Below are positions 21,635 to 42,498 of a stretch of 64,000 nucleotides of DNA, in pieces (position 1 is the first letter of the stretch; each line of letters opens with the position of its first letter). Made by a program: the position numbers and the translations under genes. Below the pieces are notes generated by a model. That model had not been told where the DNA came from, ran no database searches, and saw only the letters and a program-made list of their open reading frames with translations. The DNA is from Parcubacteria group bacterium (GTDB taxonomy: Bacteria > Patescibacteriota > Minisyncoccia > Moranbacterales > UBA11712): contig JBAZYY010000003.1 of the NCBI GenBank assembly GCA_041659065.1, positions 20,696 to 84,695 on the forward strand, read 5' to 3'.

Positions 21635-21637
21635 CTT

Positions 21638-25300: not shown

Positions 25301-26118
25301 GTTTGATGGGCTTGTTCATATTTAGTCAGAAAGTCTGTTATTTTGCTTGCCAATTGGTTGCAATCCTCAAGAACACTTGAATTATCAAGCACACCTAGAT
25401 TATCTCCATTAGTAATGCCAACCGCTTGTTTCTTTTTTATACCTTCATAAAGATTTGCAATTTCAGTAAGTGAGCAGGAAAGGGCCATAAATTCTGGATT
25501 TCTACCCAAACTGCGATCTTCCAAATATCCTTTCAGGGATTTTAAATATAAGACATCTATATGGTCTGGATTAAACCTAGCATTATTTATTTTAGTGAGA
25601 TCTCGCTGAAGATCGCCAATGTTTTTGGGATCGAATTTATTTATTAAAAACTTTTCTCTAATTTCGTTTCCGTCATGAATTGGAATATTTTCTCCATTAC
25701 CTCTCTTGTATATTTTATGTTCTGTAATATGCGGCCTCACAAAATATGGTGAAGGAAATATATAGACACAATACACAAATAGCATTCTTTTCCTTGGAAT
25801 TTTAAAAGTTTTTATATCCCACCCATTGTCAGATATGGCTGGTAGAATATTAGCATTAATAATACGACTTATTTTTGTCCTTAAGTCAGTCACCTTACCA
25901 ACGCCAATAATATTTTTCGAATCGTCAACTCCAAAAATAATTATGCCTCCATTAGTATTGGCATAAGCGCAGAAAGTATTTCTTATTCTTTGATTTTCTA
26001 AGTTAATTATTTTTTTCCATTCATGCCACCAACATTCTTGACTATCTAGATCCCTTAACCAAGATTGAAAATCATCGAATTCCCAAGTTGTTATTTTTTT
26101 CCAATCCATTTTATTCAA
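25297..26118 (-). CDS. AlbA_2 (Schlafen-like / divergent AAA-4) domain protein
   Basis: FCAYANTNGGIIIFGVDDSKNIIGVGKV matches the AlbA_2 putative DNA-binding domain core. It starts 57 bp after the hsdR stop on the same strand. Confidence 0.6.
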   Translation of the reverse strand: MNKMDWKKITTWEFDDFQSWLRDLDSQECWWHEWKKIINLENQRIRNTFCAYANTNGGIIIFGVDDSKNIIGVGKVTDLRTKISRIINANILPAISDNGWDIKTFKIPRKRMLFVYCVYIFPSPYFVRPHITEHKIYKRGNGENIPIHDGNEIREKFLINKFDPKNIGDLQRDLTKINNARFNPDHIDVLYLKSLKGYLEDRSLGRNPEFMALSCSLTEIANLYEGIKKKQAVGITNGDNLGVLDNSSVLEDCNQLASKITDFLTKYEQAHQT

Positions 26119-26175
26119 CCTTTATATACGACCGAAATTATTATATAAAAGTGAAAAAAGATTTATTGTATATTT

Positions 26176-29100
26176 TTACTCTCCGCTCCAATCTTTACAC
26201 AAAACCTCGGCCTGCTCTAAAACGGTTTTGGTTGCAAGCTCTTGTTTGTCCGGCGGATATTTATATTTATTAAGCAGTTTCTTCACATACACTCGAAGCT
26301 TCGCCCGGACGCTTTCTTTGAGCGTCCAATCGATTGTGGTATTTTTGCGGAGCATGGCTACCAGTTCTTGAGCGATTTTCCGTAACGTCTCGTCGCCGAG
26401 TTCCCTAACTGCGCTTTCGTTGTCGCAAAGAGCATCATAGAAAGCCACTTCATCCTCGGTGAGATTCAATTCACCGCCCCGATCTTTTTCTTCTCTTATT
26501 TTTTTCGCCAGTTCCACCAGTTCGGCAATCACTTGAGCCGCTTCGATTGTTTGGTTCTGATATTTCCTGATCGTTTCCTCAAGCATTTTGGCGAACGAGC
26601 GGGATTTGACCAAAAACTTTCTCTGCATCGTCAAAATCTCGTCATTGAGAAGTTTTTTGAGAAGTTCGAGGGCGACATTCTTATGTTCCAGCTCTTTTAC
26701 TTCCTGCAAAAATTCATCCGACAAAACCGAAACATTCGGAGTTTTTAGTCCAGCGGCATCAAAAATATTCACGACCTCATCTGAAACTACCGCGTTGGAA
26801 ACAATTTGCTTTATTGCTTGATCATAATCATCCTGTGTTGGTCCGCCTTGTCCTCCGCTTTGATCAAGTTTAATAATAATCGCCCGCACGGCTTGAAAAA
26901 ACGCCACTTCATCCCGAATCTTCAAGGCTTCGTCGCTGGGAACCGACAGCGAGAAAGCATAGGATAATTCGGTCACAGACTGCAAATATCTTTTCTTGCC
27001 GTCTTCCAATCCCAAAATATAGTCCGTGGCGCCAGAGATAACTCTTGTTTTATCGGCGGCCTTGTCGCTGAAATATAGAGCGTAATCAAATTTGTGATAC
27101 ATGTCTTTGACTATCTCGTATTTCTCAAGCATCACGGCGATCGCTTCTTCTTGCGGAATGGTCGGCTGTTCTTTTCCTTCCTTGGTATAATTTGCCAAAG
27201 CTTCTTTGAGCGAGGGAGCAATACCGAGATAATCAACAATCAGCCCGCCCGGCTTGTCTTTGTAGACCCGGTTTACTCGGGCAATAGTTTGCATCAAGCC
27301 ATGCCCCTTCATCGGCTTATCAATATACATCGTGTGGAGCGACGGGGCGTCAAAACCCGTGAGCCACATATCCCGAACAATCACGAATTTCAATTCGTCT
27401 TTCGGATCTTTCATGCGGCTTGCCAGAAGCTCCCGTTCATCTTTCGTGTGAATATGCTTTTGAAAATTGGCCGGATCGCTGGCCGAACCCGTCATTACAA
27501 CCTTGATAAACCCTTTGTTGATATCATCGCTATGCCAGTTCGGACGAAGCTTCACAATTTCCTCATAAAGTTCCACGGCGATTCTGCGACTCATCGCCAC
27601 AAACATTCCCTTGCCCTCCATAGCGTCAAGTCTGGCCTCGAAATGATCAACGACATCTTTAGCGATAAGCTTGATACGTTTCTCCGATCCGACCATCGCT
27701 TCAAGGCGCGCCCACTTGCTTTTGAGTTGTTCTTTTCTGGAAACCTCCTCGCCCTCCGTGAGTTCTTCAAATTCAGTATCAATTTTCGGGGTCTCTGATT
27801 TGAGGAGCTGAATTTTCGCCAGTCGTGCTTCATAATATATCGGCACGGTGGCATGATCTTCGACGGCTCGCGAAATATCATACACATCAACATATTCGCC
27901 AAATACCGCCCGTGTGTTTTTGTCAGTGAGCTCAATCGGCGTTCCCGTGAATCCGATGAATGAGGCGTTTGGCAAAGCGTCGTGCATATGACGAGCAAAA
28001 CCGTCAATGAAATCATACTGACTTCGGTGGGCTTCATCGGCGATCACCACAATATTTCGTCTGTCAGATAAAAGCTGGTGTTGATCGTTCTTATTTTCCG
28101 GAAAAAACTTTTGAATCGTGGTAAACACAACACCCCCCGAAGCAACGCTGAGCAAATCTTTCAAATCCGAACGATCCTTTGCTTGAACAGGAGTTTGGCG
28201 GAGGATCTCATCGCATCCGGAAAAGACTCCGAAAAGCTGATCATCCAAATCGTTGCGATCAGTAAGAATCACAAGTGTCGGGTTATCCAAAACTTGAATT
28301 ATTTTCCCGGCGTAAAAAACCATTGTAAGAGATTTTCCCGATCCTTGCGTGTGCCAAACCACTCCGCATCGGCGATCTCCCGATTCCCGTGTGGCTTCAA
28401 GAGTTTTCACAACCGCTTTGTTGGTCGCGTGATATTGGTGATAAGCCGCCAGTTTTTTGATAGTATTTTTCCCGTCAGATTCGAAGACAACAAAATTGCG
28501 AATAATATCGAGGAAATGTTCTTTAGCAAATATGCCTCTGATCAGCACTTCCATTTCTGGAATGGAGGCTGGAGCCACAGTTTCGCCGTCAATCGTCCGC
28601 CATTTCATGAATCGTTCAAGATCAGCCGAAAGCGTTCCGACTCGCGCGTCTATACCGTCACTAATGACGCAAAACGAGTTATATGCAAAAAGTGAAGTAA
28701 TTTGCGCTTTGTAGGTTTGAATCTGATTGAAAGCGTTTTTGACCGTGGCGTTGGTGTCAGCCGGATTTTTGAGTTCAAAAACAGCCAGAGGCAGGCCGTT
28801 CACAAAAATGACGACATCCGGACGGCGATTGTGATTGTTTTCAATAACAGTATACTGATTGACCGCCAGCCAATCATTTTGATCTATATTTTTGGAATCG
28901 ATCAGATAAACTTTGTCACCCGCGATTGTTCCGTCGGTTCGACGATATTCCACATCCACACCTTCAACTAGCATTTTGTGAAAAGAATGATTGGTTTCCA
29001 AAAGGCTGGGGTTGGAATATGCGACATTGATTACTTTTTTAATGGCATCTTCTTGAGCTTCACTGGGAATTGTCGGATTTATTTTTGCCACAGCTGATCG

Positions 29101-29256
29101 CAAATGCTCAACCAAAACAATGTCCTTGTATGATTGCCGTTCCGGCGATTCACCATCAAAAGCGATATTGGGACCGAAAACAATCGAATAGCCAAGTTCC
29201 TCAAGCCATTCGAGGGCTGCGTTTTCCAAGTCTGATTCGGTGTATTTGTTTGTCAT
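26176..29256 (-). CDS. hsdR: type I restriction enzyme R subunit
   Basis: N-terminal HsdR_N nuclease region, SF2 helicase motifs ([11 protein letters not shown] = motif I; [10 protein letters not shown] = DEAH box), and a C-terminal HsdR-specific domain. Length is 1026 aa. Confidence 0.9.
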
Positions 29257-29258
29257 AG

Positions 29259-30164
29259 TTATATTTTTATAATTTTATCTTCCGTTGCCCTGTATTGTTC
29301 AAAGAATGGAAATGTTTTTTCTGAAAGCGGACTCGATGCAAGTGGATTATGCATCAAAACGCACTCACCGCCCATTTTTTCTCGACAACTCAAAACGGCA
29401 TCTTTGGAATAGATTACCGCACTTATTCCAGCATGTTTTGGATCTTGAAAAAAATCCATCGGCACAGGGCTCCCATTTTTTTTCGGAACTTCTTTTCGTA
29501 TTGACCAAAATGGCTTATCAAATTTACTATCTCCTTTTTTCTCTCCAGCTTTTAAAATACGGAATGTCTGGTATCCGATGCTAAACAGAACCTTGAGAAT
29601 AAGTGGTATTCCAGTATCAACATGATCCAGTGATGCTCTGTTGACGGCAATTATGAATATATCGTCTTTTTTGACTATTCCATCGGAAACATATTTTTGG
29701 TAAACCCTAAGCTTTTCATTTAATGAGTTCCTTAGACGAAATAACATTTGTTTTTCTGGGACATCTTGCAAAACACCGTATTGCACATCTGGCACATAAT
29801 TTTCACTGTCCTTGCTGCCTTTTTGCGGTGCTACGCATTCAATCCAAATCGTTTTGCCGCTTGTAACTAATTTGATGTCCGGACCGCTATCGCTCGATGA
29901 TATTTCAAAACCTTTCCCGAGAAGAACGCAAGCAAGATACATCTCCCAAGTCCTTTGATGAAAATTGCTTTTCACATCTATCAAAAAATTGCTATCTTTA
30001 TGCGGTTCAAATTGTTTATACATTTCATCAAAAAACTTCTTCCTGTCTGGAATAGATCCACTAGCAATATACCAACCATCGTAATTCGAATATTGCTTTT
30101 GCAAGCGCGCTAATTCCTCATTATTTTTTGTAACTGGAAAATTGTCGGTAAATAAACTTGGCAT
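29259..30164 (-). CDS. hypothetical protein embedded in the type I R-M operon (301 aa)
   Basis: The ORF stop abuts the hsdR start (2-bp gap). A possible nuclease-like D...E..K pattern is weak. Confidence 0.45.
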
Positions 30165-30184
30165 GTTATCTTACTCTTATTTTT

Positions 30185-30649
30185 CTACTTATAAACATTA
30201 GCGATAGACACATCAATAGTTTTCATTATTTTTGCATTAGCAGGAATAATATAGTTCATAGATAATTCATTTATAAGTTCGATTTGCTTTTTTGATTTTT
30301 CAATATTTCTTTTTTTAACATTTTTTATGCAAATATCTGGATTATTTTCAAAACAATGCCATTGAATTTCAACAGAATTTGAAAAATAAATTTTTACAAA
30401 ATCTTTTAAATCTTCCTGTTTATTTTTTTGGGAAAACCTAACATCTGCAATAACACAATTTTCTCTATTACCCAGCCTTTTGATAAGTTCGTCTTTAAAT
30501 TTACTATGCTTCATATCGCCTATATTATCTACGGCTTCCGCAAAAATATCATCAAAGGCATAAAAACCAAGCGGCTCCAACTTATTTTTCATGTAATAAG
30601 ATTTTCCTGAACCCGGCGAACCAATCACAACTATTAATATTGTTTTCAT
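30185..30649 (-). CDS. small P-loop NTPase/kinase-like protein
   Basis: Walker A VIGSPGSGKSYY at the N-terminus, 154 aa. It overlaps the hsdS end by 4 bp. Confidence 0.6.
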   Translation of the reverse strand: MKTILIVVIGSPGSGKSYYMKNKLEPLGFYAFDDIFAEAVDNIGDMKHSKFKDELIKRLGNRENCVIADVRFSQKNKQEDLKDFVKIYFSNSVEIQWHCFENNPDICIKNVKKRNIEKSKKQIELINELSMNYIIPANAKIMKTIDVSIANVYK

Positions 30650-31899
30650 AATTTTATTTTTACTCTTATTTTTCCACTCATCAGTCGAGGCAACAGAGAA
30701 TCTCGAATTAAAATCAATTCTTCATTTTCTTGACCATTTTTCTTAATCTTTTCAAAGAGTGGGCTGACGGTTGTTTCGTATTTTTTGATTAAATCTAAAT
30801 CTGGAAACGGAAATGATACTTGTGCAAAAGTTGAAATAGTTATAGTTGAAAACACTGAACCATGCGCCTTTTGTTTCAATTCCTCGGCAGTCATTTTTGT
30901 TAGTTCATAGACAAAATATGGATCGGTATCGTCTTTTCCCCTTAGTGCATAGCATGATTGATTCATTGCCATCGGCACTCCAGCCATCGCAACTTTTCCT
31001 ACTGTGCCACGAGCAGTAATAAATGTTGTATCTATTGGATAGAGCGGACTATTACAACTTTTCAATCCATCCTGTGTAATGTATTTTTCAGTTCCCAATA
31101 CATACACAGAGTCGTCAGCGTCTTTCGGTGTGAAAAAAGGAATATTACCGTTCCAATATTGATATGCGTTTGTTTTTGGAGTGCCGCCACTCATCACTTC
31201 GACAACATCAGTAAATTTAGCAACTTTCCATTCTTCCAGCAGCCTATCGCCAATATCAACAAACCACTTTTTGAAAAGAATGGATGCTATTTTTTCTAGG
31301 TTGGCATTGATTTTACGATTAAGTTCTATTTTATCGTCGAGTGAGGAAATAATTTCGGCGATTTGTTTTTGTTCCTCAATTGTCGGCCGAATTATTTTAA
31401 GATTCTTTAAATCCCTGATTGGTAGTTGCGGTTGTGCTGATCCAGTGGTTAATTCGACAATTTGTTTTTTTGTAATCCAACTTTTCAATAATTGAAATAA
31501 GTATTTTGAATCAAAATCCTTATTGTTTCTCAAAATAACCATTCCGGAATTAATCCTCATATTTTCAAAGGGTATAGTCTCATCATAAAAGGCAACATTT
31601 CCCACAGTTCCTCTCGTTGTTAACACAAAATCACCTTTCTGCATTTTGCCTTTTCGTAGCTCCGCATCTTTTGACTGTGAAATAAATTGACTATTCGAGA
31701 AATTGAAACTATCGCCACAAACATTTTTTGCATTAAGAAATAAGCAGTAATCTTTATCAGAAAAATCTGACCCATGAGGATAGTTTGACCCCCGATCCCC
31801 ATCAATTATATTTAGAGCCTCATTAATATTAACAATATCCCATTCTTCTGGAATGATCCCAATTTCTGTTTCTTTAAATTTTGTTTCAACTATTTTCAT
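30646..31899 (-). CDS. hsdS: type I restriction-modification specificity subunit
   Basis: Two target-recognition domains separated by and ending with the conserved coiled-coil repeats (LPIRDLKNLKIIRPTIEEQKQIAEII / LLPRLMSGKIRV). Confidence 0.85.
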   Translation of the reverse strand: MKIVETKFKETEIGIIPEEWDIVNINEALNIIDGDRGSNYPHGSDFSDKDYCLFLNAKNVCGDSFNFSNSQFISQSKDAELRKGKMQKGDFVLTTRGTVGNVAFYDETIPFENMRINSGMVILRNNKDFDSKYLFQLLKSWITKKQIVELTTGSAQPQLPIRDLKNLKIIRPTIEEQKQIAEIISSLDDKIELNRKINANLEKIASILFKKWFVDIGDRLLEEWKVAKFTDVVEVMSGGTPKTNAYQYWNGNIPFFTPKDADDSVYVLGTEKYITQDGLKSCNSPLYPIDTTFITARGTVGKVAMAGVPMAMNQSCYALRGKDDTDPYFVYELTKMTAEELKQKAHGSVFSTITISTFAQVSFPFPDLDLIKKYETTVSPLFEKIKKNGQENEELILIRDSLLPRLMSGKIRVKIKL

Positions 31900-31900
31900 G

Positions 31901-32653
31901 CTATTTTCTGTTGATCAAGTCGTAAGCCAAGCTGGCCAGCGCGATATAATGAACTGCTAAATTTTTATCCAGATCTTGAGCTGGGGTATGAGCCTTCTCG
32001 TTTCTCAAAAATTGAATTGCCATATGTAAAAACTTGATGCCCTCAAAAAAATCTTTCTCGGCATCATTCAAGGGTTGATGACCAAAAATTTTTTCATAAT
32101 TTGAATTACTGAAAGCATCAGTGGCTTTTTCCTTACCCGACACATCTTTCAATTTTTTTCTGACAACCTTATACGCTTCTTCGACAGCATTGAAGCAGTG
32201 ACCGTCATTTAATAATTTTTGCACATGATCAAAAATATCTTTTTGCAGAAGAATGTTAATGTTGCCGTTCTGAAAAGTGGCTTGGGATTTATTTTCCTTT
32301 TCTTCTATTTTTACACCTAATAACCTCTTGCTAACTTTTTCGCCCGCGTCAATTATTTCTTTTGGAAAATCTTCTCTTTTCAGATTGTCGATAAGTATCT
32401 GATTCTCGATATATTCGATAAGCTTGGCGATGCTTTTGCCAATAAGTTTGTCGTCAGCGGTTAGCCACAGACCACGCAAACGATTAGCCTTTGATCCGCT
32501 ACCATACATATATTTTTTGTTGTAGATGTCGATGCCAACGTCGTCCCTGAAAAACTCGCCCATAGTTCGGTCGGAAAAATTCAAAACATAACCACCACCC
32601 ATCTGGAACAGTTTCTCAAGGAGTTGTTTTTCATTTGTGGTTAAGTTTGCCAT
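31901..32653 (-). CDS. TIGR02391-family protein (HEPN-like, R-M-locus associated)
   Basis: The C-terminal region has GHCFNAVEEAYKVVRKK ... FLRNEKAHT (Rx4-6H HEPN motif), characteristic of the ymh family found between hsdM and hsdS. Confidence 0.65.
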   Translation of the reverse strand: MANLTTNEKQLLEKLFQMGGGYVLNFSDRTMGEFFRDDVGIDIYNKKYMYGSGSKANRLRGLWLTADDKLIGKSIAKLIEYIENQILIDNLKREDFPKEIIDAGEKVSKRLLGVKIEEKENKSQATFQNGNINILLQKDIFDHVQKLLNDGHCFNAVEEAYKVVRKKLKDVSGKEKATDAFSNSNYEKIFGHQPLNDAEKDFFEGIKFLHMAIQFLRNEKAHTPAQDLDKNLAVHYIALASLAYDLINRK

Positions 32654-32655
32654 AG

Positions 32656-34206
32656 TTATTCCAAATTAAACCCGATACTTTTCAGATTTCTTCTTATTCT
32701 TTCCTCTAATTCTCCCGACTGTTTGAATTGCTTGGAAAGCTCGCTAGTCAGTCTTTTCATTTTTTCCTCAAAAACTTCGTCATCCTCTTCCACAAAATCC
32801 GTTCCGACATATCGGCCGGGAGTCAAAACAAAACCGTTCTTTTCAACTTCTTCAATTTTTGCCGCTTTGCAAAAACCTTTTACATCTTCATATTTCCCAT
32901 CTCTATTTCTCCAGCTATGATAAACACTGGAAATTTTTTGAACATCTTCACTCGTGAGCTCTCGGTTCTTTCTGGTGACCATCGTTCCCATTTTTCGGGA
33001 ATCAATGAACAAAATCTCATCTTGCCGATCTCTGAATTTATGATTATGTCGATCTCGGGAAACAAACCAAAGGCACGCTGGAATCTGTGTTGTATAAAAA
33101 AGCTGCGGTGGCATCGCCACAATGCAATCCACCAATCCGTTTTGAATGAGGTTTTTTCTAATTTCCCCCTCGCCTGAAGTATTCGATGAAAGCGAACCAT
33201 TCGCCAAAACAAATCCAGCAATTCCGGCCGGAGTCAAGTGATGGATCATATGCTGAATCCATGCGTAGTTCGCATTGCCAGCTGGAGGCACGCCATATTT
33301 CCAGCGGATGTCATCTTTGAGCCTCTCGCCACCCCAGTCGCTGATGTTAAACGGCGGATTTGCCAAAATAAAATCCGCTTTCAAATCTTTGTGTAGATCA
33401 TTATGAAAAGTATCGGCGTTATGCGTTCCGATGTTACCCTCAATCCCACGGATGGCGAGATTCATTTTGCAAAGCCGCCAAGTGGTCGGGTTCGATTCTT
33501 GTCCATAAACAGCAATATCATTTTTATTTCCTCCGTGAGCTTCAACAAATTTTTCACTTTGAACAAACATGCCACCACTTCCGCAGCAGGGATCATATAT
33601 GCGTCCCTTGTACGGTTCGAGCATTTCAACTAAGAGTTTGACCACCGATTGAGGAGTGAAAAATTCGCCCCCGCCTTTTCCTTCGGCAGATGCGAATCGT
33701 CCAAGAAAATATTCATAGACCCGTCCGAGAATATCTTTACTTCGGCTTTCTTTGTCTCCAAGGCCAATTGTGCTTACCATATCAATGAGTTCACCGAGAC
33801 GAACTTTGTCTAGATCGGGACGGGCATAGTTTTTGGAAAGCACGCCTTTGAGGCTCGGGTTGTCTTTTTCGATGGCCACCATGGCGTCGTCAAGCATCTT
33901 TCCAATCTCCGGTTTTTTGGCGTTTGCTTTCAAAAATTCCCAACGAGCCTCCTGTGGAACCCAAAATACGCCTTCGCCAACATAAGCATCGCGATCTTCT
34001 TCCTGACCTTCATAATGATCGGGATCATTTTTGATTTGAGTGTGCACTTCCTCAAACGAATCGGAAATGTATTTGAGAAATATCAAACCAAGCACCACGT
34101 GCTTATATTCAGCTGGATCCATATTGTTTCGCATCTTGTCCGCGGCTGCCCAAAGTGTTTCCTCGAAGCCAACATTTGTGCCATTAGATTTTTTATTTTT
34201 TGCCAT
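32656..34206 (-). CDS. hsdM: type I restriction-modification DNA methyltransferase M subunit
   Basis: N6-adenine MTase motif [11 protein letters not shown]; motif [10 protein letters not shown]; N-terminal HsdM_N. Confidence 0.9.
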
Positions 34207-34402
34207 GATTTTGGTTGATTATTTTTAAGACATCTTCTTTTTTGTATCTGCGATCGCCACGTTTTCCAAATCGGATGGCTTTCAGCGTGCCTTCATTATC
34301 CCAATTGCGAAGCGTGTTGGGATGGCAATTTAGCAGCTCGCAAGCGTCCTGAAGCGTCAGTATTTCCGGATATTCTTCAATTTTTCGTGATTGCTTTTTC
34401 AT
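34193..34402 (-). CDS. small HTH DNA-binding protein (excisionase/AlpA/MerR-like)
   Basis: [44 protein letters not shown] is an HTH_17-type helix-turn-helix. It overlaps the hsdM start by 14 bp. Confidence 0.6.
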
Positions 34403-34428
34403 AAAATATGACTTAACATTAGTTTACA

Positions 34429-35274
34429 ATGAAAAAACCCATAAGTAAAGGCAAAAAGAACAATTACCGCAGAGGCCGTTTTTCGAAAAAAAGCGAGCCT
34501 CAATTTTCATATTCATCACACAAAAAGAACATAGACAATGTGAAGTTGCTGTTTTCCTATAGCTTGTTTCGGAAGGAGATAAAAACAATTAGAGATTACC
34601 TAAAAATACCAAAGGATGGATTAAAAGATGAAGATTCAAAGAAATGGCATTTAGATAGAGACAAGGAATCAAATGAAATTATGGAATCTGAACGATTTTT
34701 GCTTCAAGGGGAAAGAATTTGTCAAAAAATTATACTAGGAGAAATTAGTCTTGCGATGGGCAATAAGCAAGCTCGTCTTCTGCTCAATAAGATGCCTTGG
34801 AATTATTTATCAAATTCAGTTAATTTCTTGATTGAAAAGTTTCATGTTCCGCTTAATTATGAGCAGACCATAAGGCGCTACATCCTTTTTAACAAGATTG
34901 TGTTCGTTCCAGCTCAAAATTTCGTTGTCGGCGGATTTGACGGTAGCTTTCGGATTAAGGACGCCAGATTTTTACCAATAAGAATTTATGCCAAGCTGAC
35001 AGATGAGGATATCGAAGAAATAAAAGATACGATTGAAAGATTCGGTAAAAATCTTCCTAATTTTCAACCGCTTAAGGATATTGATAAGCGATTGACCATT
35101 GAAGAATGGGTTAGGAGTAGAGGAAAAATTGATCCGCTGACTGGGAATGAATATCAAATGACAGTAGAGGAAATCGCGGAAAATATTTACGGCAATAAGA
35201 AACAAAAAAATAAGGTCAGAGATAATCAACGTAAATTGGATGAGATAAGAAAAAAGAGGTTCGGAAAATTGTAG
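34429..35274 (+). CDS. hypothetical protein (281 aa)
   Basis: ORF only; basic N-terminus. Confidence 0.45.
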   Translation: MKKPISKGKKNNYRRGRFSKKSEPQFSYSSHKKNIDNVKLLFSYSLFRKEIKTIRDYLKIPKDGLKDEDSKKWHLDRDKESNEIMESERFLLQGERICQKIILGEISLAMGNKQARLLLNKMPWNYLSNSVNFLIEKFHVPLNYEQTIRRYILFNKIVFVPAQNFVVGGFDGSFRIKDARFLPIRIYAKLTDEDIEEIKDTIERFGKNLPNFQPLKDIDKRLTIEEWVRSRGKIDPLTGNEYQMTVEEIAENIYGNKKQKNKVRDNQRKLDEIRKKRFGKL

Positions 35275-35383
35275 GTTATAATTTTCCGAGGGCTAGTAGC
35301 ATTGCATGATTTAATAGACACAGTTAGCTGTGTCTATTTTTTTATCGAAAAAAGACACGGTAATAATTATTAAGTAAAAATCT

Positions 35384-36733
35384 ATGACACCACAAAATGT
35401 CGCAGAGAAAATCTCGAGGGAAAAACTTCGAGTCGAGTACGTGGACGCTTCGATGCTCAAAGCGTCCGAATACAATCCTAGGAGAATAAGCAAAGAAGGG
35501 ATGGAGCACCTAAAAGAAAGTATTCGTCGATACTCTCTTGTGGATCCCCTTATCGTGAACTCAGCTCCCAACCGCAAAGGAATTTTGATTGGGGGTCACA
35601 TGAGATTACGAGCAGCCGTAGAGCTAGGAATCAAAAAAGTGCCGATAGTCGAGCTAAATATTCCGGATATCGAAAAGGAAAAAGAACTCAATATACGACT
35701 CAACAAAAACACGGGGGAATTCGATTGGAACTTGCTAGCTGATTTCGGCGAAACATTTCTCGCTGATGCGGGCTTCACCAGCGAAGAGTTGGATAATATT
35801 TTTGCAGTCGAAGACTCGCCCGAATTGTTTGATCTTCAGAAAGAATTGACTAAGCTCGATATAAAAAAAATCGAAATCCAAAAAGGCGATGTTTGGCAAT
35901 TCGGCGAATCGAGATTGATGTGCGGCGACTCAACCGTCGAAGCCGATATGTTAAAACTTATGAACGGCGAAAAAGCTGACATGTGCTTCACTGATCCCCC
36001 GTACATTTTAGACTATCTTAAGGGTAAGAAAAAGAACGGAAAACCGATTGAAGGATTTGGCTATAAACGCGATCGCAAATACCTTGAAACTGACATTCTA
36101 CCAGACGACTTCACGGAAAAATGGATGTCGAATATCCACGAAGTAGCCAATGAAAATTTCTCCATTATTGTTTATGAGAATTGGAAAAACATCAGGACTA
36201 TTTGGGGAGAAATGGAAAAGTATTTCAAGATGAAGAACATGATTGTGTGGCACCTTCCCAATCGAGTCCAGGGATTCGCCGCAAAATACAAATTCTTTAA
36301 TAAACACGATATCGCCATGGTCGGTGGCAGTGGAAATGTGACAATCAACATGGAATCGGAAGATGAACTACTTCAAAACGAATACGAAACCGCCCTATTT
36401 GGAATTCAAGGCAAGCCTCACTGGGAAAGTTATGAAAAAGGCAAAAAAATCTGTCCTACTGACTTTTTGGAATTTAAGGCAGCTGATGAAAAAAGTTCCG
36501 GGCAAGGAATAATTTTCGGAACTAAGCCGACGGAAATATTGATTCCATACATCAAAGTCCTTACAAAACGAGGCAGCCTAATTGTCGAGCCCTTTGGCGG
36601 AAGCGGATCGACTTTGATTGCGGCCGAGAAAATGAAACGCAGGTGCTACCTTATGGAAAAATCCCCAGTATACGCTGAAGTTATCCGCAACCGTTGGGAA
36701 AAACTAACTGGCAAAAAAGCCACAAAAATATGA
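35384..36733 (+). CDS. ParB-like nuclease domain fused to N6/N4 DNA methyltransferase (phage-type)
   Basis: An N-terminal ParB/Srx fold (LIVNSAPN..GILIGGHMRLRAAVELG), then methylase motif IV CFTDPPY and a C-terminal motif I-like EPFGGSGST (permuted beta-class order). Confidence 0.8.
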   Translation: MTPQNVAEKISREKLRVEYVDASMLKASEYNPRRISKEGMEHLKESIRRYSLVDPLIVNSAPNRKGILIGGHMRLRAAVELGIKKVPIVELNIPDIEKEKELNIRLNKNTGEFDWNLLADFGETFLADAGFTSEELDNIFAVEDSPELFDLQKELTKLDIKKIEIQKGDVWQFGESRLMCGDSTVEADMLKLMNGEKADMCFTDPPYILDYLKGKKKNGKPIEGFGYKRDRKYLETDILPDDFTEKWMSNIHEVANENFSIIVYENWKNIRTIWGEMEKYFKMKNMIVWHLPNRVQGFAAKYKFFNKHDIAMVGGSGNVTINMESEDELLQNEYETALFGIQGKPHWESYEKGKKICPTDFLEFKAADEKSSGQGIIFGTKPTEILIPYIKVLTKRGSLIVEPFGGSGSTLIAAEKMKRRCYLMEKSPVYAEVIRNRWEKLTGKKATKI

Positions 36734-36871
36734 AAAAGCAACATCACAAAAAAAGCCTTTCTGGAGCACCTTCGTAAAATTCCAATTATACAAGTAAGTT
36801 GCGAAAAAACCGGCATCGCAAGATGCACGATCTATCGTTGGAAAAAAGAAAGCAAGAAATTCGCCAAAGAA

Positions 36872-37120
36872 ATGGAGAATGCATTGGCTGAGGGAGAAGC
36901 CCTGATAAACGACATGAGCGAATCCCAGCTAATATCGCTCATTAAGGACAAGAATTTCAGCGCCATAAGATTCTGGCTCAAAAATCGTCACGAAAAATTC
37001 CGTGAGCGATTTGAAGTAACGACTAATTTACAAGGACAAGAAGAATTGACCAAAGAACAAAAAAACGTTGTCCGGGAAGCTCTCCGCCTAGCATCACTCG
37101 GCAATAAAAAGAAGAAATAA
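36872..37120 (+). CDS. terminase small subunit-like HTH protein (annotated from first ATG; ORF likely begins upstream at a non-ATG codon)
   Basis: The open frame extends back to 36734 (ITKKAFLEHLRKIPIIQVSCEKTGIARCTIYRWKK...) with an HTH, then AIRFWLKNRHEKFRERF resembling terminase small-subunit C-terminal motifs. It lies directly upstream of TerL. Confidence 0.4.
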   Translation: MENALAEGEALINDMSESQLISLIKDKNFSAIRFWLKNRHEKFRERFEVTTNLQGQEELTKEQKNVVREALRLASLGNKKKK

Positions 37121-37138
37121 CTATTAAAATTTAATTCC

Positions 37139-38587
37139 ATGTCAACCGACAAAACGCTAAACAAAAAAATAATCAATCGGATGCTCAAAGATAAGCAAGT
37201 CCGCATTGCAATCACCAAAGAAAGCCACTATATATTCTTTCACCTATATTTTTCGCACTATGTTGTATACCCAACAGCTGAATTTCAAAAAGAGATTTTT
37301 GAGATGACGGAAGATAAAAAGAAGAAAAGCCTATTTATAGTCGCCTTTAGATCTTCCGCTAAATCGACAATTGCCACAATGTCACTTCCGATCTGGTCAA
37401 TTCTCGGAAAGCACCAGAAAAAGTTTGTGCTCATTCTGTGCCAGACCCGCCACCAAGCGAAACAGCATATGATAAATCTTAAACAAGAATTGGAAAGCAA
37501 CGAACTGCTCAAAAACGATCTGGGGCCATTCCAAGAAGAAGGAGATTCCGAATGGGGCACGACATCGCTGGTGTTTTCGCGCCTCAACGCTCGGATCAGC
37601 GTAGCTTCCTCCGAGCAAAGTATCCGCGGACTGCGTCACAACCAATACCGACCCGATTTAATCATTGGTGACGATGTTGAAGATATGAACTCAACAAGAA
37701 CTCGAGAAGGTCGGGATAAAACCTACCAGTGGCTGACCAGTGAAGTTATTCCCTGCGGAGACCGAAACACTCGGTTGGTTATTGTCGGAAATCTTCTCCA
37801 TGAAGATTCGCTCCTCATGCGATTGAAACAAGATTTGGAGGAAAAAAAGATTGACGGACATTTTTTGTCCTACCCGCTGGTTGATGAAAACGGTATCATC
37901 CTTTGGCCGGGGAAATATCCAACACCGGAAGATATCGCCCTTGAGCGAAAGAAGATTGGTAGTGAATCTGCTTGGCAACGTGAATTCCTGTTACGTATCG
38001 TTCCCAGCGAAGGACAACTTATCGATCCGAGATGGATCCGCTACTATGACGAATTGCCGACCAAAGCTGAAGCGCGATTCAGATATACCGCCACCGGAGT
38101 CGACTTGGCTATTTCAAAAAACGAAACGGCCGATTATACCGCCATGGTGTCGGGTAATATTTATAACTGGGACGGTGATGTTACCATTTATATCTTGCCG
38201 GATCCCATCAACAAGCGATGGAGTTTTCCAGAAACAGTTGACCAGATAAAAATTCTCGCCAATGCCGGCAAGAATTACCCCTACTTCTATATCGAGGAAA
38301 TCGGATATCAGGCTGCTTTAATTGGACAGCTTCAGCACGAAGGTATCCGCAATGTCAGCGGAGCCAAGGTGCATGGGCAAGATAAGCGTTCAAGGTTGGC
38401 GCTTACTACACATCTCATCAAATCAGGAAAAGTGCTTTTTCCGAGAAAGGGCGCGGAATTTCTGATTCAGCAACTGACCGGATTTGGCATTGAGAAACAT
38501 GATGATTTGGCCGATGCTTTTGCGATTCTCGTGCTCAAAACCATGCAAGGCGATCACTGGCTTCCGAGGGTTGATTGGGTATCATAA
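37139..38587 (+). CDS. phage terminase large subunit
   Basis: ATPase region (VAFRSSAKSTIAT Walker A-like; LIIGDDVED Walker B) and a C-terminal RNaseH-like nuclease region (YTAMVSGNIY ... YIEEIGYQA ... HDDLADAFAI). Confidence 0.8.
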   Translation: MSTDKTLNKKIINRMLKDKQVRIAITKESHYIFFHLYFSHYVVYPTAEFQKEIFEMTEDKKKKSLFIVAFRSSAKSTIATMSLPIWSILGKHQKKFVLILCQTRHQAKQHMINLKQELESNELLKNDLGPFQEEGDSEWGTTSLVFSRLNARISVASSEQSIRGLRHNQYRPDLIIGDDVEDMNSTRTREGRDKTYQWLTSEVIPCGDRNTRLVIVGNLLHEDSLLMRLKQDLEEKKIDGHFLSYPLVDENGIILWPGKYPTPEDIALERKKIGSESAWQREFLLRIVPSEGQLIDPRWIRYYDELPTKAEARFRYTATGVDLAISKNETADYTAMVSGNIYNWDGDVTIYILPDPINKRWSFPETVDQIKILANAGKNYPYFYIEEIGYQAALIGQLQHEGIRNVSGAKVHGQDKRSRLALTTHLIKSGKVLFPRKGAEFLIQQLTGFGIEKHDDLADAFAILVLKTMQGDHWLPRVDWVS

Positions 38588-38626
38588 TAGGCGTTTTTCA
38601 AGGCTTTTCGGGGTCTGGACAAAGGT

Positions 38627-40012
38627 TTGGGTTTGCGTCATTCATTGTGGTATATGAATACTCAAATGAATCAGACTATTACAAGCCAGATAGGTGCCAA
38701 ACCGCCGGAGGAACCGATGAAAACACGCTATTGCCTTTACGCGAGAAAATCCACCGAATCGGAAGAGCAGCAGGTGCTTTCCATAGAATCCCAAGTGAAG
38801 GAAATGCTCCAGATCGCCGAACGCGATGGACTCGAGATTGCGGAGATCCGGCGCGAAAGCCATTCGGCGAAAGATTCGGGACAGCGGCCCGTGTTCAGCG
38901 AACTTGTTGAAGACATCCGAAAAGAAAAATTCAACGGCATCCTCACCTGGGCGCCGGATCGCTTGAGCCGCAATGCCGGAGATCTCGGATCGCTTGTCGA
39001 CCTCATGGATCAGAAACTCCTGTTCGAGATCCGCACATACGGGCAAACCTTTGCCAACTCGCCGAACGAAAAATTCCTACTGATGATTCTTTGCTCGCAG
39101 GCGAAGCTCGAAAACGATAACAAGAGCGTCAACGTGAAGCGGGGTCTTCGGGCGAGGTGCGAAATGGGACTCTGGCCGACGCTTGCTCCAGTCGGATACA
39201 CGAACGGACAGACCGAAGATCGGAAAGGCCGCGTCGTCCCGGATTCCGAAAGAGCTCCGGTCGTCAAAAAAATCTTCGAGAAGATGGCTCACGAGAAATG
39301 GAGCGGAAGGAAAATATTTCACTGGCTCAAGTTCGAGCTTAACTTCAAAACCAGAGGCGGAAAGTCTCTGTCGCTCTCGAGTATATACGTCATGATCCAG
39401 AATTCTTTTTACTACGGCCCCTTTGAATATCCAAGAGGAAGCGGAAACTGGTATCAGGGGAAGCACGATCCGATCATCACGAAGGAATTGTTCGATCTTG
39501 CGAACGAGCAGATCAAGCGCGATCGGATTGTGAAAGACAGCAAGGAGTTCGCTTTTACTAAATTGATGAAATGCGGATTGTGTGGGTCGGGAATCTCGGC
39601 CGAAGAAAAATACAAGAAGCTCAAGAACGGGAATGTCAACAAACACGTATATTACGGATGCACGAGATCGCGGGATCTCAAATGCAAATGTGGATACATG
39701 AAAGAAGATGACATAATTTCGCAGCTGGTGAAAATAGTGGATGATCTCGATATGAACGAGATCGGAATTAAGAAACAATTTCAGGAAGAGGTGGAGCGAT
39801 TCAACAAATTCCAACAGATGGTGCTCAAGATGAACGGCCGGGAAAACGAAATAGATAAAATGTTGGAATTCGATATCCGGATGTATGCCAAATATGTATT
39901 GAAAGAAGGAAGTGTTACTGAAAAAAGAGAAATGCTGGCGGGACTCACAAGCAAGCTGATCGTGGAGAACAAGCAGATCCGACTGGAAAAAGCGGAGAGT
40001 GAAAAAAGTTGA
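38627..40012 (+). CDS. large serine recombinase (phage-type integrase)
   Basis: N-terminal resolvase catalytic domain (YCLYARKSTESEEQQ with catalytic Ser; WAPDRLSRN), a recombinase domain, and a zinc-ribbon CGLCGS...YYGC...C. Confidence 0.85.
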   Translation: MGLRHSLWYMNTQMNQTITSQIGAKPPEEPMKTRYCLYARKSTESEEQQVLSIESQVKEMLQIAERDGLEIAEIRRESHSAKDSGQRPVFSELVEDIRKEKFNGILTWAPDRLSRNAGDLGSLVDLMDQKLLFEIRTYGQTFANSPNEKFLLMILCSQAKLENDNKSVNVKRGLRARCEMGLWPTLAPVGYTNGQTEDRKGRVVPDSERAPVVKKIFEKMAHEKWSGRKIFHWLKFELNFKTRGGKSLSLSSIYVMIQNSFYYGPFEYPRGSGNWYQGKHDPIITKELFDLANEQIKRDRIVKDSKEFAFTKLMKCGLCGSGISAEEKYKKLKNGNVNKHVYYGCTRSRDLKCKCGYMKEDDIISQLVKIVDDLDMNEIGIKKQFQEEVERFNKFQQMVLKMNGRENEIDKMLEFDIRMYAKYVLKEGSVTEKREMLAGLTSKLIVENKQIRLEKAESEKS

Positions 40013-40234
40013 TAAATCAGCAGAGAAGCAGTATAGTGATATTAACAATTTAGCCTAAACTCACGCCTTCTGGTGTGAGCATGGCGCATAAAACCTAGCT
40101 AATAGAGACGGCCTCATGGTCGACACTTATTAGCTAGGTCGGTGTTCCGAAAGGGCATCGGGCAATCCGAAAGGGTTGTCGTCGTACTGTGGGGCCTTTT
40201 GTGTACCCACAAAATAAATCCTAGCTAAAAAATC

Positions 40235-41164
40235 ATGGAAAAAAACTATTGGGTCGTCCGGATGGGCGAAGCAAACAAGTATGCCGATTATGCGCACGAA
40301 AACAATCTAGTCGCCATCGGCTGGAACGAACTGAAAAAAGACTTGAACGAGTATCGGGCGTTGAATAAAAAAGAATTCTTCAAAACAGTTATTCCTCTTC
40401 TCGAAGAAGCCTATGAAATTAACTCAAAGGCAAATTCAATGAATGCCGGCCAGTTATTCAGATTCAGCAACTTGGTGGAAATCGGAGATATTGTGCTGGT
40501 GCCAAAAATGCAGGAAGGAAAAGTATATGTCGGTTCGATCGAAGGCGATTATATATATCATCAGGAATCGCCTGACGAATTCGGCTATCATCACAGAAGA
40601 GCGGTGAAATGGATCAAAACAATCAGCACCCAAGATCTATCCCAGAATCTGCGCAATTCAATCGGAGCGATGATGACGATTTTCAGCGTCAACAAATATG
40701 CGGACGAAATTGAGACGCTATTAAGCAAAGACAAAGGCGCAAGCAATGATATAGAAAGTTTGGAAAGCTTCGGGCTGGAATCCCAACTCGAAGATTTTAT
40801 TGTGGAAAATTGGGATAAACTCACTTTGGGTAAAAGTTATGAAATCCTGCAAGAGAATGGTCAGATAATCGGCCAGCAATTCGCAACACCAGTCGGAAGA
40901 ATAGATATTCTTGCCAAAAATAAAGATGGCAAAGAGTGGCTGGTGATCGAACTCAAAAAAGGAAAAAGCAGCGACCATGTTATAGGACAAACATTGAGAT
41001 ACATCGCCTGGATCAAGGAAAACGAGGCTGGAGCGGATGAAAATGTCAAAGGCCTCATAATCACCAAAGATCAAGATGAAAAGTTGAAATATTCCTTGAA
41101 AGCCGCGCCCGATGTGGATTCGATGACCTATTCGGTAAATTTTCAACTGAATAAACCTGAATAA
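40235..41164 (+). CDS. DUF91/NucS-like PD-(D/E)xK nuclease with N-terminal PUA/EVE-like domain (possible modification-dependent restriction enzyme)
   Basis: The C-terminus has PVGRIDILAKNKDGKEWLVIELKKGKSSDHVIGQTLRYIAWI (DUF91 signature). The N-terminal ~150 aa (YWVVRMGE...W...GDIVLV) has an EVE-like pattern; this domain call is tentative. Confidence 0.5.
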   Translation: MEKNYWVVRMGEANKYADYAHENNLVAIGWNELKKDLNEYRALNKKEFFKTVIPLLEEAYEINSKANSMNAGQLFRFSNLVEIGDIVLVPKMQEGKVYVGSIEGDYIYHQESPDEFGYHHRRAVKWIKTISTQDLSQNLRNSIGAMMTIFSVNKYADEIETLLSKDKGASNDIESLESFGLESQLEDFIVENWDKLTLGKSYEILQENGQIIGQQFATPVGRIDILAKNKDGKEWLVIELKKGKSSDHVIGQTLRYIAWIKENEAGADENVKGLIITKDQDEKLKYSLKAAPDVDSMTYSVNFQLNKPE

Positions 41165-41446
41165 TCAATGAATGTTGAGTATTGAAAAAACGAAAGAATT
41201 GCTAGATGACAAAACCATATCGGACGATCAAGCCGAAAAAATCAGGGATGATGTGCAGACGCTTGCCGAAATCATCATCGAAAAATACATATCTGACAGA
41301 AAAAGCGGAAAGTGGAAAGACTGAAATTTCAGACCAACAAAAAGAAGCTATCGCGGAAAATATAGCCTCTTTTTTCTTCAAGTTTTGGAAGAATAGAAAT
41401 AATCTAAAATCGACGGAATAATTTTGAAGCCATCGAAATACAAAAA

Positions 41447-41471
41447 CCAAGGCCTTTCGAGCCTTGGTTTT
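41447..41471 (+). terminator. rho-independent terminator
   Basis: ccaaggc-ctttcga-gccttgg hairpin followed by TTTTAT. Confidence 0.6.
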
Positions 41472-41621
41472 ATATCTTGATGGCGATAGGACTGGAACCG
41501 AATTAATGGCTTGAATAAAGTAAATCGATTTTTTTATGGCGACCGGACGTTGTGAAGCTATGGCCTAAAATAGCTTGTATATAGTAAAAAGGATCGGTCT
41601 CTCGATAAAAAAATGTAGCTG

Positions 41622-41930
41622 CTCCCGGGACAGGATTCGAACCTGTAACCAATTGATTACACTTATCCTAATGTTTCCAAAAGGGGTGGACTATATCATT
41701 CCCGCATAGCGGGATGAGGCGCTTCCCCCGACGTGACGTCGGAGTACTCTCTTTCGAGATAGTCTCTGAACCTTCCCTGACATTAAGTCGGGGCTTGGCT
41801 TCTGATTACCTTTTTTCGGCTGAAGAAAATTAAGGCTTCCAGAAATTCACCTCATTTTCACTTCCAAATTTCTCTGAAAGGCTGCGTTTAATGTTCACAG
41901 TCAACTGCTCTACCATTGAGCTACCCGGGA
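41622..41930 (-). tRNA. tRNA gene interrupted by a group I intron in the anticodon loop (anticodon most consistent with GUU/Asn; alternatives not excluded)
   Basis: 5' exon UCCCGGG-UA-GCUCAAUGGUAGAGC-A-GUUGA-CUGU. The 3' exon is UAAUCAAU-UGGUU-ACAGGUUCGAAUCCUGU-CCCGGGA-G. The acceptor halves are perfectly complementary across ~300 nt. The intervening ~236 nt carries the group I core elements R (GGTTCAGAGACTA) and S (ATGATATAGTCC), a P1 (CUGU/GCAG with a U.G pair at the splice site), a P10, and a terminal G. Confidence 0.7.
41660..41895 (-). ncRNA. group I self-splicing intron (tRNA anticodon-loop insertion)
   Basis: Conserved R and S elements forming P7 (GACUA/UAGUC), P- and Q-like elements (AATTTCTGGAAGCC / AATCAGAAGCC), and an omega-G at the 3' end. 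There is no internal ORF. Confidence 0.65.
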
Positions 41931-41933: not shown

Positions 41934-42170
41934 TTATATTCTATTTTTTAGGAACCTTCTTCCAAAACCAGTCTTAAAATATTTCTCTCTTTGAATTGCT
42001 TTATTGCGATCCAGGCAAGCTTCATAATATACCAGGACAAGGGGAGCTCTTTCTTTTGTGGCGTCAACCAATTTCGAGTTATGTTCTTTTAATCTTTTTC
42101 TAAGATCTGCTGTAAAACCAACATACAATTTATTATCGTTTTCACTTTTAATAACGTAGGTATAATACAT
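41934..42170 (-). CDS. GIY-YIG nuclease superfamily protein (YhbQ-like)
   Basis: MYYTYVIKSENDNKLYVGFTADLRKRLKEHN is a GIY-YIG core. It ends 4 nt from the tRNA 5' end. Confidence 0.7.
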   Translation of the reverse strand: MYYTYVIKSENDNKLYVGFTADLRKRLKEHNSKLVDATKERAPLVLVYYEACLDRNKAIQREKYFKTGFGRRFLKNRI

Positions 42171-42182
42171 AAACTATTATTG

Positions 42183-42228
42183 AGCCCCGCCCGCAACGCC
42201 TTGCAAGCAAGCCTTGCATGGCGGGCGG
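42183..42228. other. GC-rich nested hairpin (CCCGCCCGC ... GCGGGCGGG)
   Basis: A 9-bp perfect GC stem enclosing an inner palindrome CTTGCAAGCAAG, lying between the GIY-YIG gene and a 14-bp repeat of the tRNA 5' end. Confidence 0.5.
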
Positions 42229-42498
42229 GTACCCGGGAATATTCGTATTCAAAGAACACGATGGGATTATAATAGAATAATGCCAGTTTGGCAAGTCCGG
42301 TAGTAGAAATTTGACAAAGAAAAATTCTCCTTTTTTTTTGCGAAAAACATAAGTATAGCGACATATATTTCGTATTTCCCAAGCTACGAATTCTGGCTAA
42401 TAGCTGGTCAAATTTTCACTACTGGGCAAGATTAGGCTAAAAGCCTGAAATGTGATAAAATAGTACGCGCTTGAGCAAAATAACCCGAAAAATAAAAG

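Follow-up and report, generated by a model that had tools for sequence, protein, structure and literature searches.

A tRNA-Asn gene split by a group I intron with IA2-type architecture, and an adjoining GIY-YIG nuclease cassette, in a Parcubacteria genome

Results

A tRNA-Asn(GUU) gene interrupted by a group I intron

Here, we describe a split tRNA gene in a 64,000-nt stretch of DNA from a Parcubacteria group bacterium of the order Moranbacterales (assembly GCA_041659065.1, contig JBAZYY010000003.1, positions 20,696 to 84,695; hereafter, the window, in which position 1 is the first base of this stretch). The locus, on the minus strand between positions 41930 and 41622, is very probably a functional tRNA-Asn(GUU) gene. 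A group I intron of 237 nt, with IA2-type architecture and no open reading frame (ORF), splits it between tRNA positions 35 and 36. This assignment is carried by the sequence elements of the gene, a fold of the intron that is backed by covariation, the splice register, and homology to an intron for which self-splicing has been demonstrated experimentally. Unless indicated otherwise, the features discussed below are on the minus strand.

The 5′ exon (41930..41897; tRNA positions 1–35) consists of the acceptor strand TCCCGGG, the dinucleotide TA, the D-arm GCTC-AATGGTA-GAGC, a single A, the anticodon stem strand GTTGA, and the terminal CTGT; it ends with U35 (41897), which serves as the −1 U of the 5′ splice site. 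The 3′ exon (41659..41622; positions 36–73, that is, U36 A37 A38 ... A72 G73) starts with TAA-TCAAT, followed by the variable loop TGGTT, the T-arm ACAGG-TTCGAAT-CCTGT, the acceptor strand CCCGGGA, and the discriminator base G; the CCA end is not encoded. The ligated exons form a canonical cloverleaf as predicted by ARAGORN, and the same architecture is found in 109 homologous loci (see below). The intron (41896..41660) harbors the R element GGTTCAGAGACTA (41772..41760), the S element ATGATATAGTCC (41699..41688), the terminal guanosine omega-G (41660), and a possible P10 helix formed by AUUA (41892..41889) with UAAU (41659..41656). It lacks an internal endonuclease gene, with no ORF of 50 or more amino acids within the 237 nt.

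A search with the Rfam group I intron model RF00028 produced a match that spanned the full model (1-253) at 41907..41667 of the minus strand, with a score of 78.7 bits (E = 2.5e-18; gathering score, 50 bits), which is far above chance. By comparison, ARAGORN with default settings reported zero tRNAs in the whole 64-kb window; in the intron mode, it recovered the split gene but labeled it Thr(tgt), i(33,237), that is, with the intron placed after position 33. An earlier note, made from the letters of this stretch alone, had proposed a tRNA gene split in the anticodon loop by a group I intron and had listed R, S, a P7 pairing GACUA/UAGUC, P1, and a terminal G as its core elements. All these elements are present, and both the covariance model and the P1–P9 fold mapped below bear the proposal out. 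The note had left the strand unstated and had given the intron as 41660..41895, about 236 nt; the location stands, but the length was one base short.

Fold, covariation, and subgroup of the intron

All the core helices of a group I intron could be mapped on the window sequence: P1 (41900-41896/41886-41882), P2 (41880-41873/41868-41861), P3 (AUGAGGUG/CGCCUCAU, 41855-41848/41721-41714), P4 (41844-41839/41805-41800), P5 with P5a (41835-41809), P6 with P6a (41799-41770), P7 (GACUA/UAGUC, 41764-41760/41693-41689), P8 (41713-41701), and P9 (41684-41667), along with two additional hairpins, P7.1 (CUC-GAAA-GAG, 41758-41749) and the 8-bp P7.2 (41744-41726). To assess covariation, 37 homologues were aligned with MAFFT (alignment A2) and base pairs were counted, with 3′ partners slid by 1–3 columns and 500 shuffles as controls. 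The fraction of paired cells was 88.8%, compared to 37–44% in the slid controls, and the covariation score was 0.452, compared to 0.06–0.12; none of the 500 shuffles reached the observed values. Changes on both sides were detected in 48 of the 73 base pairs, with compensatory changes in each of P2, P3, P4, P5, P6a, P7.1, P7.2, P8, and P9; P7 is invariant.

The covariation support of P3 (one of its pairs, for example, is CG in 25 homologues and UA in 10) fixes its 3′ strand, and therefore P7.1 and P7.2 are located after the 5′ strand of P7 but ahead of that P3 strand. These hairpins comprise a 38-nt insertion that is itself supported by covariation, with compensatory changes in 3 of the 3 pairs of P7.1 and in 8 of the 8 pairs of P7.2; the linker between them is a nearly invariant A-GUA, and GAGUA is at least 90% conserved. 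Because the presence of P7.1 and P7.2 linked by G-U-A assigns an intron to subgroup IA2 (PMC3428280), we tentatively place the intron in this subgroup on the strength of its architecture. This agrees with the published classification of introns at 35/36, in which 25 of 28 were classed as IA by subgroup covariance models (Nakagawa 2026, PMC13011429).

The best known bacterial tRNA introns belong to the IC3 type, namely, those in the cyanobacterial and plastid tRNA-Leu(UAA) genes at 34/35, in Azoarcus tRNA-Ile and Agrobacterium tRNA-Arg at 36/37, and in cyanobacterial tRNA-fMet at 33/34. Like the intron in the window, these are self-splicing group I introns of about 200–250 nt that reside in a bacterial anticodon loop and usually lack an ORF, and their R and S core sequences (GGUUCAGAGACUA and GAUAUAGUC) are closely similar. 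They differ in the tRNA and the insertion site, and the intron in the window, at 35/36, additionally has P7.1 and P7.2. To our knowledge, these two hairpins are absent from IC3 introns, and their presence and covariation here led us to reject the IC3 type for this intron. The G-U-A-linked P7.1 and P7.2 are shared with the phage IA2 introns, such as those of T4 td, Twort orf142, and the cyanophage Pf-WMP3 DNA polymerase gene, which, in contrast, interrupt protein-coding genes and commonly encode homing endonucleases, whereas the intron in the window is ORF-less and resides in a tRNA gene.

The splice register identifies the gene as tRNA-Asn

Because the 5′ exon ends with CUGU and the intron ends with GUG, two splice registers are formally possible. 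In the first one, the gene encodes tRNA-Asn(GUU) and the intron separates position 35 from position 36; in the second one, it encodes tRNA-Thr(UGU) and the intron separates position 33 from position 34, which is the call that ARAGORN makes in the intron mode for the window and tFind makes for many homologues. The Thr register also has a 5′ exon ending with U and an intron ending with G. The pairing in P1, however, discriminates between the two. In the Asn register, the guide C-GCAG pairs with CUGU|G, so that U35 is opposite G (41885) in a U·G wobble, and the CUGU/GCAG pairing including this wobble is invariant in all 37 homologues of alignment A2; read as Thr, the gene would have its splice-site U facing A. 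Furthermore, the pair next to the wobble, formed by the first intron base and the base 5′ of GCAG, covaries in the Asn register only (GC 36, CG 24, AU 13, GU 6, and UG 1; these add up to 80, out of 98 loci in which GCAG was found). The Thr register also requires a G two bases before the intron end, but 23 of the 109 homologues have A or U in that position.

The body of the tRNA leads to the same assignment. The split gene in the window combines U1-A72 and G73 with the GUU anticodon, and U1-A72 with G73 are found in 108 of the 109 homologous split genes, the remaining one having U1-G72; in contrast, the uninterrupted Thr(UGU) genes of related loci have G1-C72, including one in L098, a locus that also holds a split tRNA-Asn gene (L numbers denote loci of our comparative sets). 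An uninterrupted tRNA-Asn(GTT) gene in the metagenome locus L125 is identical to the ligated exons of the window in 64 of 72 positions, the differences being compensatory changes in stems; that gene bears the closest relative of the GIY-YIG nuclease gene that adjoins the split gene in the window (see below). Finally, the spliced product of a homologue has been sequenced, demonstrating that the same ARAGORN and tFind call was wrong, and these programs have been reported to often call tRNA-Asn introns at 35/36 as Thr(UGU) introns at 33/34 (Nakagawa 2026, PMC13011429). We consider the Thr(UGU) reading effectively refuted; the Asn(GUU) assignment with the insertion after position 35, which the earlier note had offered as provisional, is upheld by the P1 wobble and covariation, the homologues, and the uninterrupted tRNA-Asn gene.

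Predicted splicing and the case for a functional gene

Established group I chemistry and the in vitro assay of a homologue suggest how the gene would be expressed. The precursor would be transcribed from the minus strand, and the intron would fold into P1 through P9, with the P3/P7 pseudoknot and the extra P7.1 and P7.2 hairpins. The guide C-GCAG would pair with the exon end CUGU and the first intron base, which would place U35 in the U·G wobble, and exogenous guanosine would cut after U35. Omega-G (41660) would next occupy the G-binding site in P7, exon ligation would produce CU-GUU-AA, and RNase P together with CCA addition would finish the tRNA. The pre-tRNA in the window shows 64.5–68% identity to three published sequences, with the core blocks aligned, including 67% to a Saccharimonadia self-splicing tRNA-Asn intron and 68% to a Paceibacteria example, with identical core blocks in both. 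For the 67%-identical homologue (GCA_016700035.1), guanosine-dependent self-splicing in vitro has been reported; the reaction was GTP-dependent and precise at 35/36, with an omega-G-to-C control (PMC13011429). By analogy, the copy in the window presumably splices as well, and this locus may be the only tRNA-Asn gene of the genome.

Several points weigh against this interpretation or parts of it. P9 contains two U·U mismatches. P10 consists of merely 3–4 bp, and the first three bases of the 3′ exon (UAA) are invariant, so that covariation cannot speak to this helix. The subgroup label is drawn from architecture. The homologues were gathered with a pattern that required G|TAA, and the universality of omega-G and of the Asn register is accordingly built in to some extent. 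Moreover, our view is limited to 64 kb of the genome, so a second tRNA-Asn gene might exist elsewhere. The mismatches and this limited view, along with the crowding of the locus with selfish elements, would be compatible with the intron being a decayed, non-splicing relic and the locus being a tRNA pseudogene, with tRNA-Asn supplied by another gene. Such decay is very hard to reconcile with the intactness of all core helices, the retention of every position that is invariant in the 37 homologues, the Rfam score well over the gathering score, and the canonical cloverleaf formed by the exons; furthermore, the split genes for tRNA-Asn and for tRNA-Asp that have been assayed are each the sole copy in the respective complete Patescibacteria genomes (PMC13011429). 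We therefore regard a relic as very unlikely and a functional split tRNA-Asn gene as the far better account of the locus.

Distribution and published relatives of the intron

The homologues were collected by scanning the GTDB species representatives, which yielded at least 120 loci; the set of homologous split genes comprises 109. Names of the Candidate Phyla Radiation (CPR) or Patescibacteria are attached to about 85 of the 120 loci listed. The remainder includes 12 loci labeled ‘uncultured Gammaproteobacteria’ (co-assembly bins), 12 labeled with an unspecified ‘bacterium’, 5 from Omnitrophota, 2 each from Elusimicrobia and Planctomycetota, and 1 each from Desulfocicer and Bacteroidetes. Among the GTDB matches listed, the one closest to the window intron reaches 76% identity, and many loci are in the range of 66–76%.

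Introns of 500–630 nt, with the GCAG guide not found in the first 150 nt, interrupt about 30 of the 109 genes (L006, L011, L029, L031-L033, L035, L036, L051-L054, L068, L071, L073-L075, L084, L086-L090, L093, L095, L102, L114, L115, L120, and L121). This fits the insertion of an ORF in the P1 loop region; introns of such length at 35/36 have been reported to encode HNH endonucleases (Nakagawa 2026, PMC13011429).

The intron belongs to a kind that is already known and experimentally validated, in the phylum where it is most common. The number of split bacterial tRNA classes has been raised from 4 to 21 (Williams 2020, bioRxiv 10.1101/2020.01.27.920355); according to Nakagawa 2026 (PMC13011429), these classes include Asn.4Ug, at times mislabeled Thr.2Ug. 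In 95 complete Patescibacteria genomes, 15 tRNA-Asn(GUU) introns at 35/36 were reported (Nakagawa 2026, mSystems, PMC13011429), and 19 of the 28 introns at this site are in Patescibacteria (PMC13011429). The intron in the window shares with this class the tRNA, the site, the phylum, the IA-type core with P7.1, and the same ARAGORN miscall as Thr(UGU) 33/34, and like most members of the class, it is ORF-less. It differs in being a distinct species-level sequence and in its company, an island and a GIY-YIG cassette, both of which go unmentioned in PMC13011429. The earlier note had considered the finding notable because group I tRNA introns are best known from other lineages. This argument fails because the host phylum is the one in which tRNA-Asn introns at 35/36 are commonest and the class was already published: tRNA-Asn(GUU) 35/36 is the most common tRNA intron in Patescibacteria, the class was cataloged in 2020, and self-splicing of a homologue was reported in 2026.

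Possible replacement of the intron core between relatives

Comparison of the window with L034, a Moranbacteria metagenome-assembled genome (MAG), suggests that the intron core has been replaced between close relatives. The tRNA-Asn exons, P1, and P9 of the two loci are near-identical (80–89% identity), whereas the cores from P2 to P8 (41704-41880 in the window and 4534-4690 in L034) are unrelated by blastn. The L034 core is devoid of P7.1 and P7.2 and scores 49.4 bits with RF00028, just below the gathering score, compared to 78.7 bits for the window. Of the 67 short introns that were aligned, at least 16 have cores of the L034 type.

A GIY-YIG cassette adjoins the split gene

Immediately upstream of the split tRNA gene, on the same strand, is an ORF (41934..42170) that encodes a 78-aa protein consisting of a GIY-YIG nuclease domain alone (Pfam PF01541, E = 7e-18); its stop codon precedes tRNA +1 by 3 nt. 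In NCBI, an entry with 100% identity to the protein is annotated as ‘GIY-YIG nuclease family protein [Parcubacteria group bacterium]’. Across 37 relatives, the catalytic residues Y5, Y16, G18, R26, H30, and E62 do not vary. The protein contains no DNA-binding domain and has no room for a second domain. Weak matches were obtained to the ‘group I intron endonuclease’ family TIGR01453 (E = 3e-5, under the cut-off) and to homing endonucleases of PHROGs, and the closest solved structures, as judged by sequence profiles, are the UPF0213 proteins BH0048 (PDB 1zg2, E = 1e-7) and EF2693 (PDB 1ywl, E = 2e-6).

Upstream of the GIY-YIG ORF lies a disrupted copy of the tRNA 5′ end (42179..42243), detected as a 14-nt exact repeat by blastn and by sequence inspection. 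It consists of tRNA positions −5 to +9 (42243..42230), a 44-nt GC-rich palindrome (CCCGCCCGC...GCGGGCGGG; 42229..42186), and tRNA positions 10–16 (42185..42179). Farther upstream, a consensus scan identified the best sigma-70-like promoter in the region (42266..42294; TTGCCA-17-TATAAT, 11 of 12 matches), which precedes the +1 of the disrupted copy (42238) by 27 nt; at cassette-free tRNA-Asn loci, the corresponding distance is mostly 10–35 nt. Judging from this layout, 42266..42294 is likely the original promoter of the tRNA gene that now probably drives the GIY-YIG ORF together with the tRNA. A weaker promoter-like site (TTGGAA-16-TAGAAT, 9 of 12 matches; 41938-41965, minus strand) is contained in the 3′-terminal part of the GIY-YIG ORF and stops 8 nt short of tRNA +1; from this site, the tRNA might be transcribed on its own too.

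Two known systems resemble this arrangement in part. In phage T4, the gene of the free-standing GIY-YIG homing endonuclease SegB is likewise found in a tRNA gene cluster, among or against tRNA genes and outside any intron (PMC2330249). The protein encoded in the window differs in its size of 78 aa and in consisting of the catalytic domain only; furthermore, here the gene is bracketed by a palindrome-bearing duplicate of the tRNA 5′ half, and the cassette occurs at many isoacceptors, whereas the abstract on SegB mentions no such bracketing (PMC2330249). The UPF0213 proteins (1zg2 and 1ywl) are similar in size and also consist of the GIY-YIG domain alone, but the sequence similarity is distant and the depositors list them as hypothetical proteins. 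We know of no reported linkage of UPF0213 proteins to tRNA genes.

A family of GIY-YIG cassettes at diverse tRNA genes

A protein search with the 78-aa ORF yielded 1,679 relatives, most of which, among the matches listed, are exactly 78 aa long; the six organism-labeled matches come from Patescibacteria/CPR lineages or an unspecified ‘bacterium’. ORF homologues adjoin split tRNA-Asn genes in at least 9 GTDB loci. For a broader view of the genomic context, we used 80 metagenome loci that were fetched with the protein and contain 87 copies of the ORF. Cassettes were recorded in the window (41934-42294, minus strand) and at the loci L123-L202, L010, L027, L034, L044, L045, L065, L066, and L106. 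In 64 of these 87 copies, the ORF is followed by an uninterrupted tRNA gene on the same strand, with a median gap of 8.5 nt, and in 4 copies, by a split tRNA-Asn gene. The 64 tRNAs represent 16 isoacceptors, of which Lys-UUU is the commonest. An exact copy (at least 9 nt) of the 5′ part of that very tRNA was found upstream of the ATG in 42 of the 64 cases. In 17 clean cases, a GC-rich palindrome of 32–56 nt is seamlessly inserted in the copy within the D-arm (positions 9 to 23), after which the copy continues to about positions 14–36 and is followed by the ORF. Related palindrome sequences recur at different tRNAs. Nearest-neighbor proteins share the isoacceptor in 19 of 67 cases, compared to the chance expectation of 10 ± 3, so that most are found at different tRNAs.

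In L149, L106, L161, L166, L175, L194, and L197, the cassettes are arranged in tandem, with either two GIY-YIG ORFs before one tRNA or repeated units of GIY-YIG and tRNA-Lys (L149). Run in the intron mode, ARAGORN falsely calls ‘tRNAs with introns’ (Leu, SeC, Pyl, Trp, and others) in which the ‘intron’ is the GIY-YIG ORF (L128, L130, L133, L134, L141, L144-L147, L166, L167, L177, L178, and L184), the program having joined the half-tRNA copy upstream to the genuine 3′ half.

On the basis of these sequence comparisons, we tentatively propose that the 78-aa ORF belongs to an undescribed Patescibacteria family of selfish cassettes, a possibility that deserves serious consideration while falling short of being probable. 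Such cassettes would colonize tRNA genes of any isotype, lodging between the promoter and the tRNA, riding the tRNA promoters, and moving between tRNA genes by means of the nuclease; the upstream 5′-half copy would be disabled by the palindrome, and a 3′-end variant would leave a tRNA 3′ remnant. As a weaker extension of this proposal, the cassette could supply the nuclease in trans to ORF-less tRNA introns. Our literature search recovered nothing relevant on GIY-YIG genes at tRNA genes in CPR/Patescibacteria or on UPF0213/YhbQ, which is weak evidence given that most subscription journals were outside the search.

Alternatively, the GIY-YIG protein could be a free-standing homing endonuclease dedicated to the intron that cuts intron-less tRNA-Asn alleles, so that the intron and the gene spread together (‘collaborative homing’). 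The same-strand juxtaposition of the ORF and the split tRNA, seen not only in the window but also at 9 or more further split tRNA-Asn loci, is in line with this scenario, as are the weak matches to TIGR01453 and the PHROGs homing endonucleases, and the difference in the intron core between two close relatives with common flanks, which suggests intron exchange. The cassette, however, is not specific to the intron: copies that precede an uninterrupted tRNA outnumber those at split tRNA-Asn genes 64 to 4, five of the uninterrupted genes being tRNA-Asn themselves, and a 78-aa protein without a DNA-binding domain is not readily compatible with dedicated homing. Given the predominance of uninterrupted tRNAs and the 16 isoacceptors, we reject an intron-specific homing endonuclease as the principal explanation and consider dedicated homing improbable.

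A second cassette and a 21-kb island

A second small GIY-YIG ORF is encoded at 19999..20313 (the listed ORF is 19999..20358, with the similarity starting from the Met at 20313); its product is 38% identical to the first one by BLASTP (E = 5e-18), and the ORF is syntenic with the second GIY-YIG gene of L034. Directly after it comes a leftover segment of the tRNA-Asn 3′ end (..GGATACCTGTCCCGGGAA; 19969..19990), within which a 12-nt exact repeat (19969..19980, identical to 41623..41634) has an E-value that is by itself at the chance level. We accept this segment as a remnant because the same, extended tRNA 3′ remnant recurs after the second GIY-YIG gene of L034, in addition to the synteny of the two genes.

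Between the second GIY-YIG gene and the 3′ end of the split tRNA is a variable block of 21.2 kb (20390..41613, on no single strand), which we refer to as the island; in L034, the same flanks are merely 1.55 kb apart, and the SpoIID neighbor in the window is syntenic with its L034 counterpart (about 68% identity). This synteny and the NCBI annotation of the first GIY-YIG protein both fit the Parcubacteria lineage of the host. Searches of Pfam, NCBIfam, and PHROGs identified in the island a type I restriction-modification system, a ParB-methylase, a terminase-like gene, a large serine recombinase (38627-40012), and a PD-(D/E)XK nuclease, whereas three ORFs had no match in Pfam or PHROGs (21638-25300, minus strand, 1220 aa; 20528-21634, minus strand, 368 aa; and 34429-35274, plus strand, 281 aa). 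The earlier note had taken this tRNA gene for an integration site of an island. The existence of a 21.2-kb block between the tRNA 3′ end and the remnant, absent from L034, partly bears out that view, but attachment (att) sites of the recombinase were not identified, and a search for an att-type repeat of the tRNA 3′ end, using a 29-mer with up to 3 mismatches, matched only the tRNA itself. A prophage extending over 1–41 kb was considered and rejected: the phage-like genes (ParB-methylase, terminase-like, and serine integrase) are confined to 35–41 kb, the rest being type I restriction-modification and housekeeping genes.

Directly after the large serine recombinase gene lies a LOOT RNA (RF03000, 69.7 bits; 40052-40180, plus strand). 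LOOT RNAs were also found within about 5 kb of split tRNA-Asn genes in two other Patescibacteria loci (L010, 1-120; L013, 7814-7918); a literature search, with most subscription journals outside its reach, returned nothing describing this motif. A putative terminator, predicted by a consensus scan as a hairpin with a 12-bp stem followed by a T run, lies downstream of the tRNA, about 150 nt from its 3′ end (41443..41471). Farther along the window, a gene on the plus strand encodes queuine tRNA-ribosyltransferase (TGT; 54938-56143, E = 1e-143). TGT acts on G34 of tRNAs with GUN anticodons, and its substrates presumably include the tRNA-Asn(GUU) from the split gene.

Discussion

The split gene described here has practical implications for the analysis of Patescibacteria. 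It adds a further case in which tools for tRNA detection that are run with default settings miss an essential tRNA-Asn gene or mislabel it as Thr(UGU), which distorts the completeness estimates for Patescibacteria MAGs. The spurious split tRNAs produced by the half-tRNA copies of the GIY-YIG cassettes are another annotation trap in CPR genomes. The comparative set extends the published picture, which was obtained from complete genomes only, to more than 100 species-level genomes with split tRNA-Asn, mostly from Patescibacteria, although some of the carriers are labeled Omnitrophota, Elusimicrobia, or Planctomycetota. Within this set, genes that are nearly identical carry, at a single site, one or the other of two different intron cores.

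The GIY-YIG cassettes, if the tentative interpretation offered here is correct, would imply that, in these reduced genomes, tRNA genes are the landing pads of a compact nuclease element marked by an unusual duplication of half the tRNA. In that case, the published inference that tRNA introns without an ORF can hardly move would need to be qualified as well.

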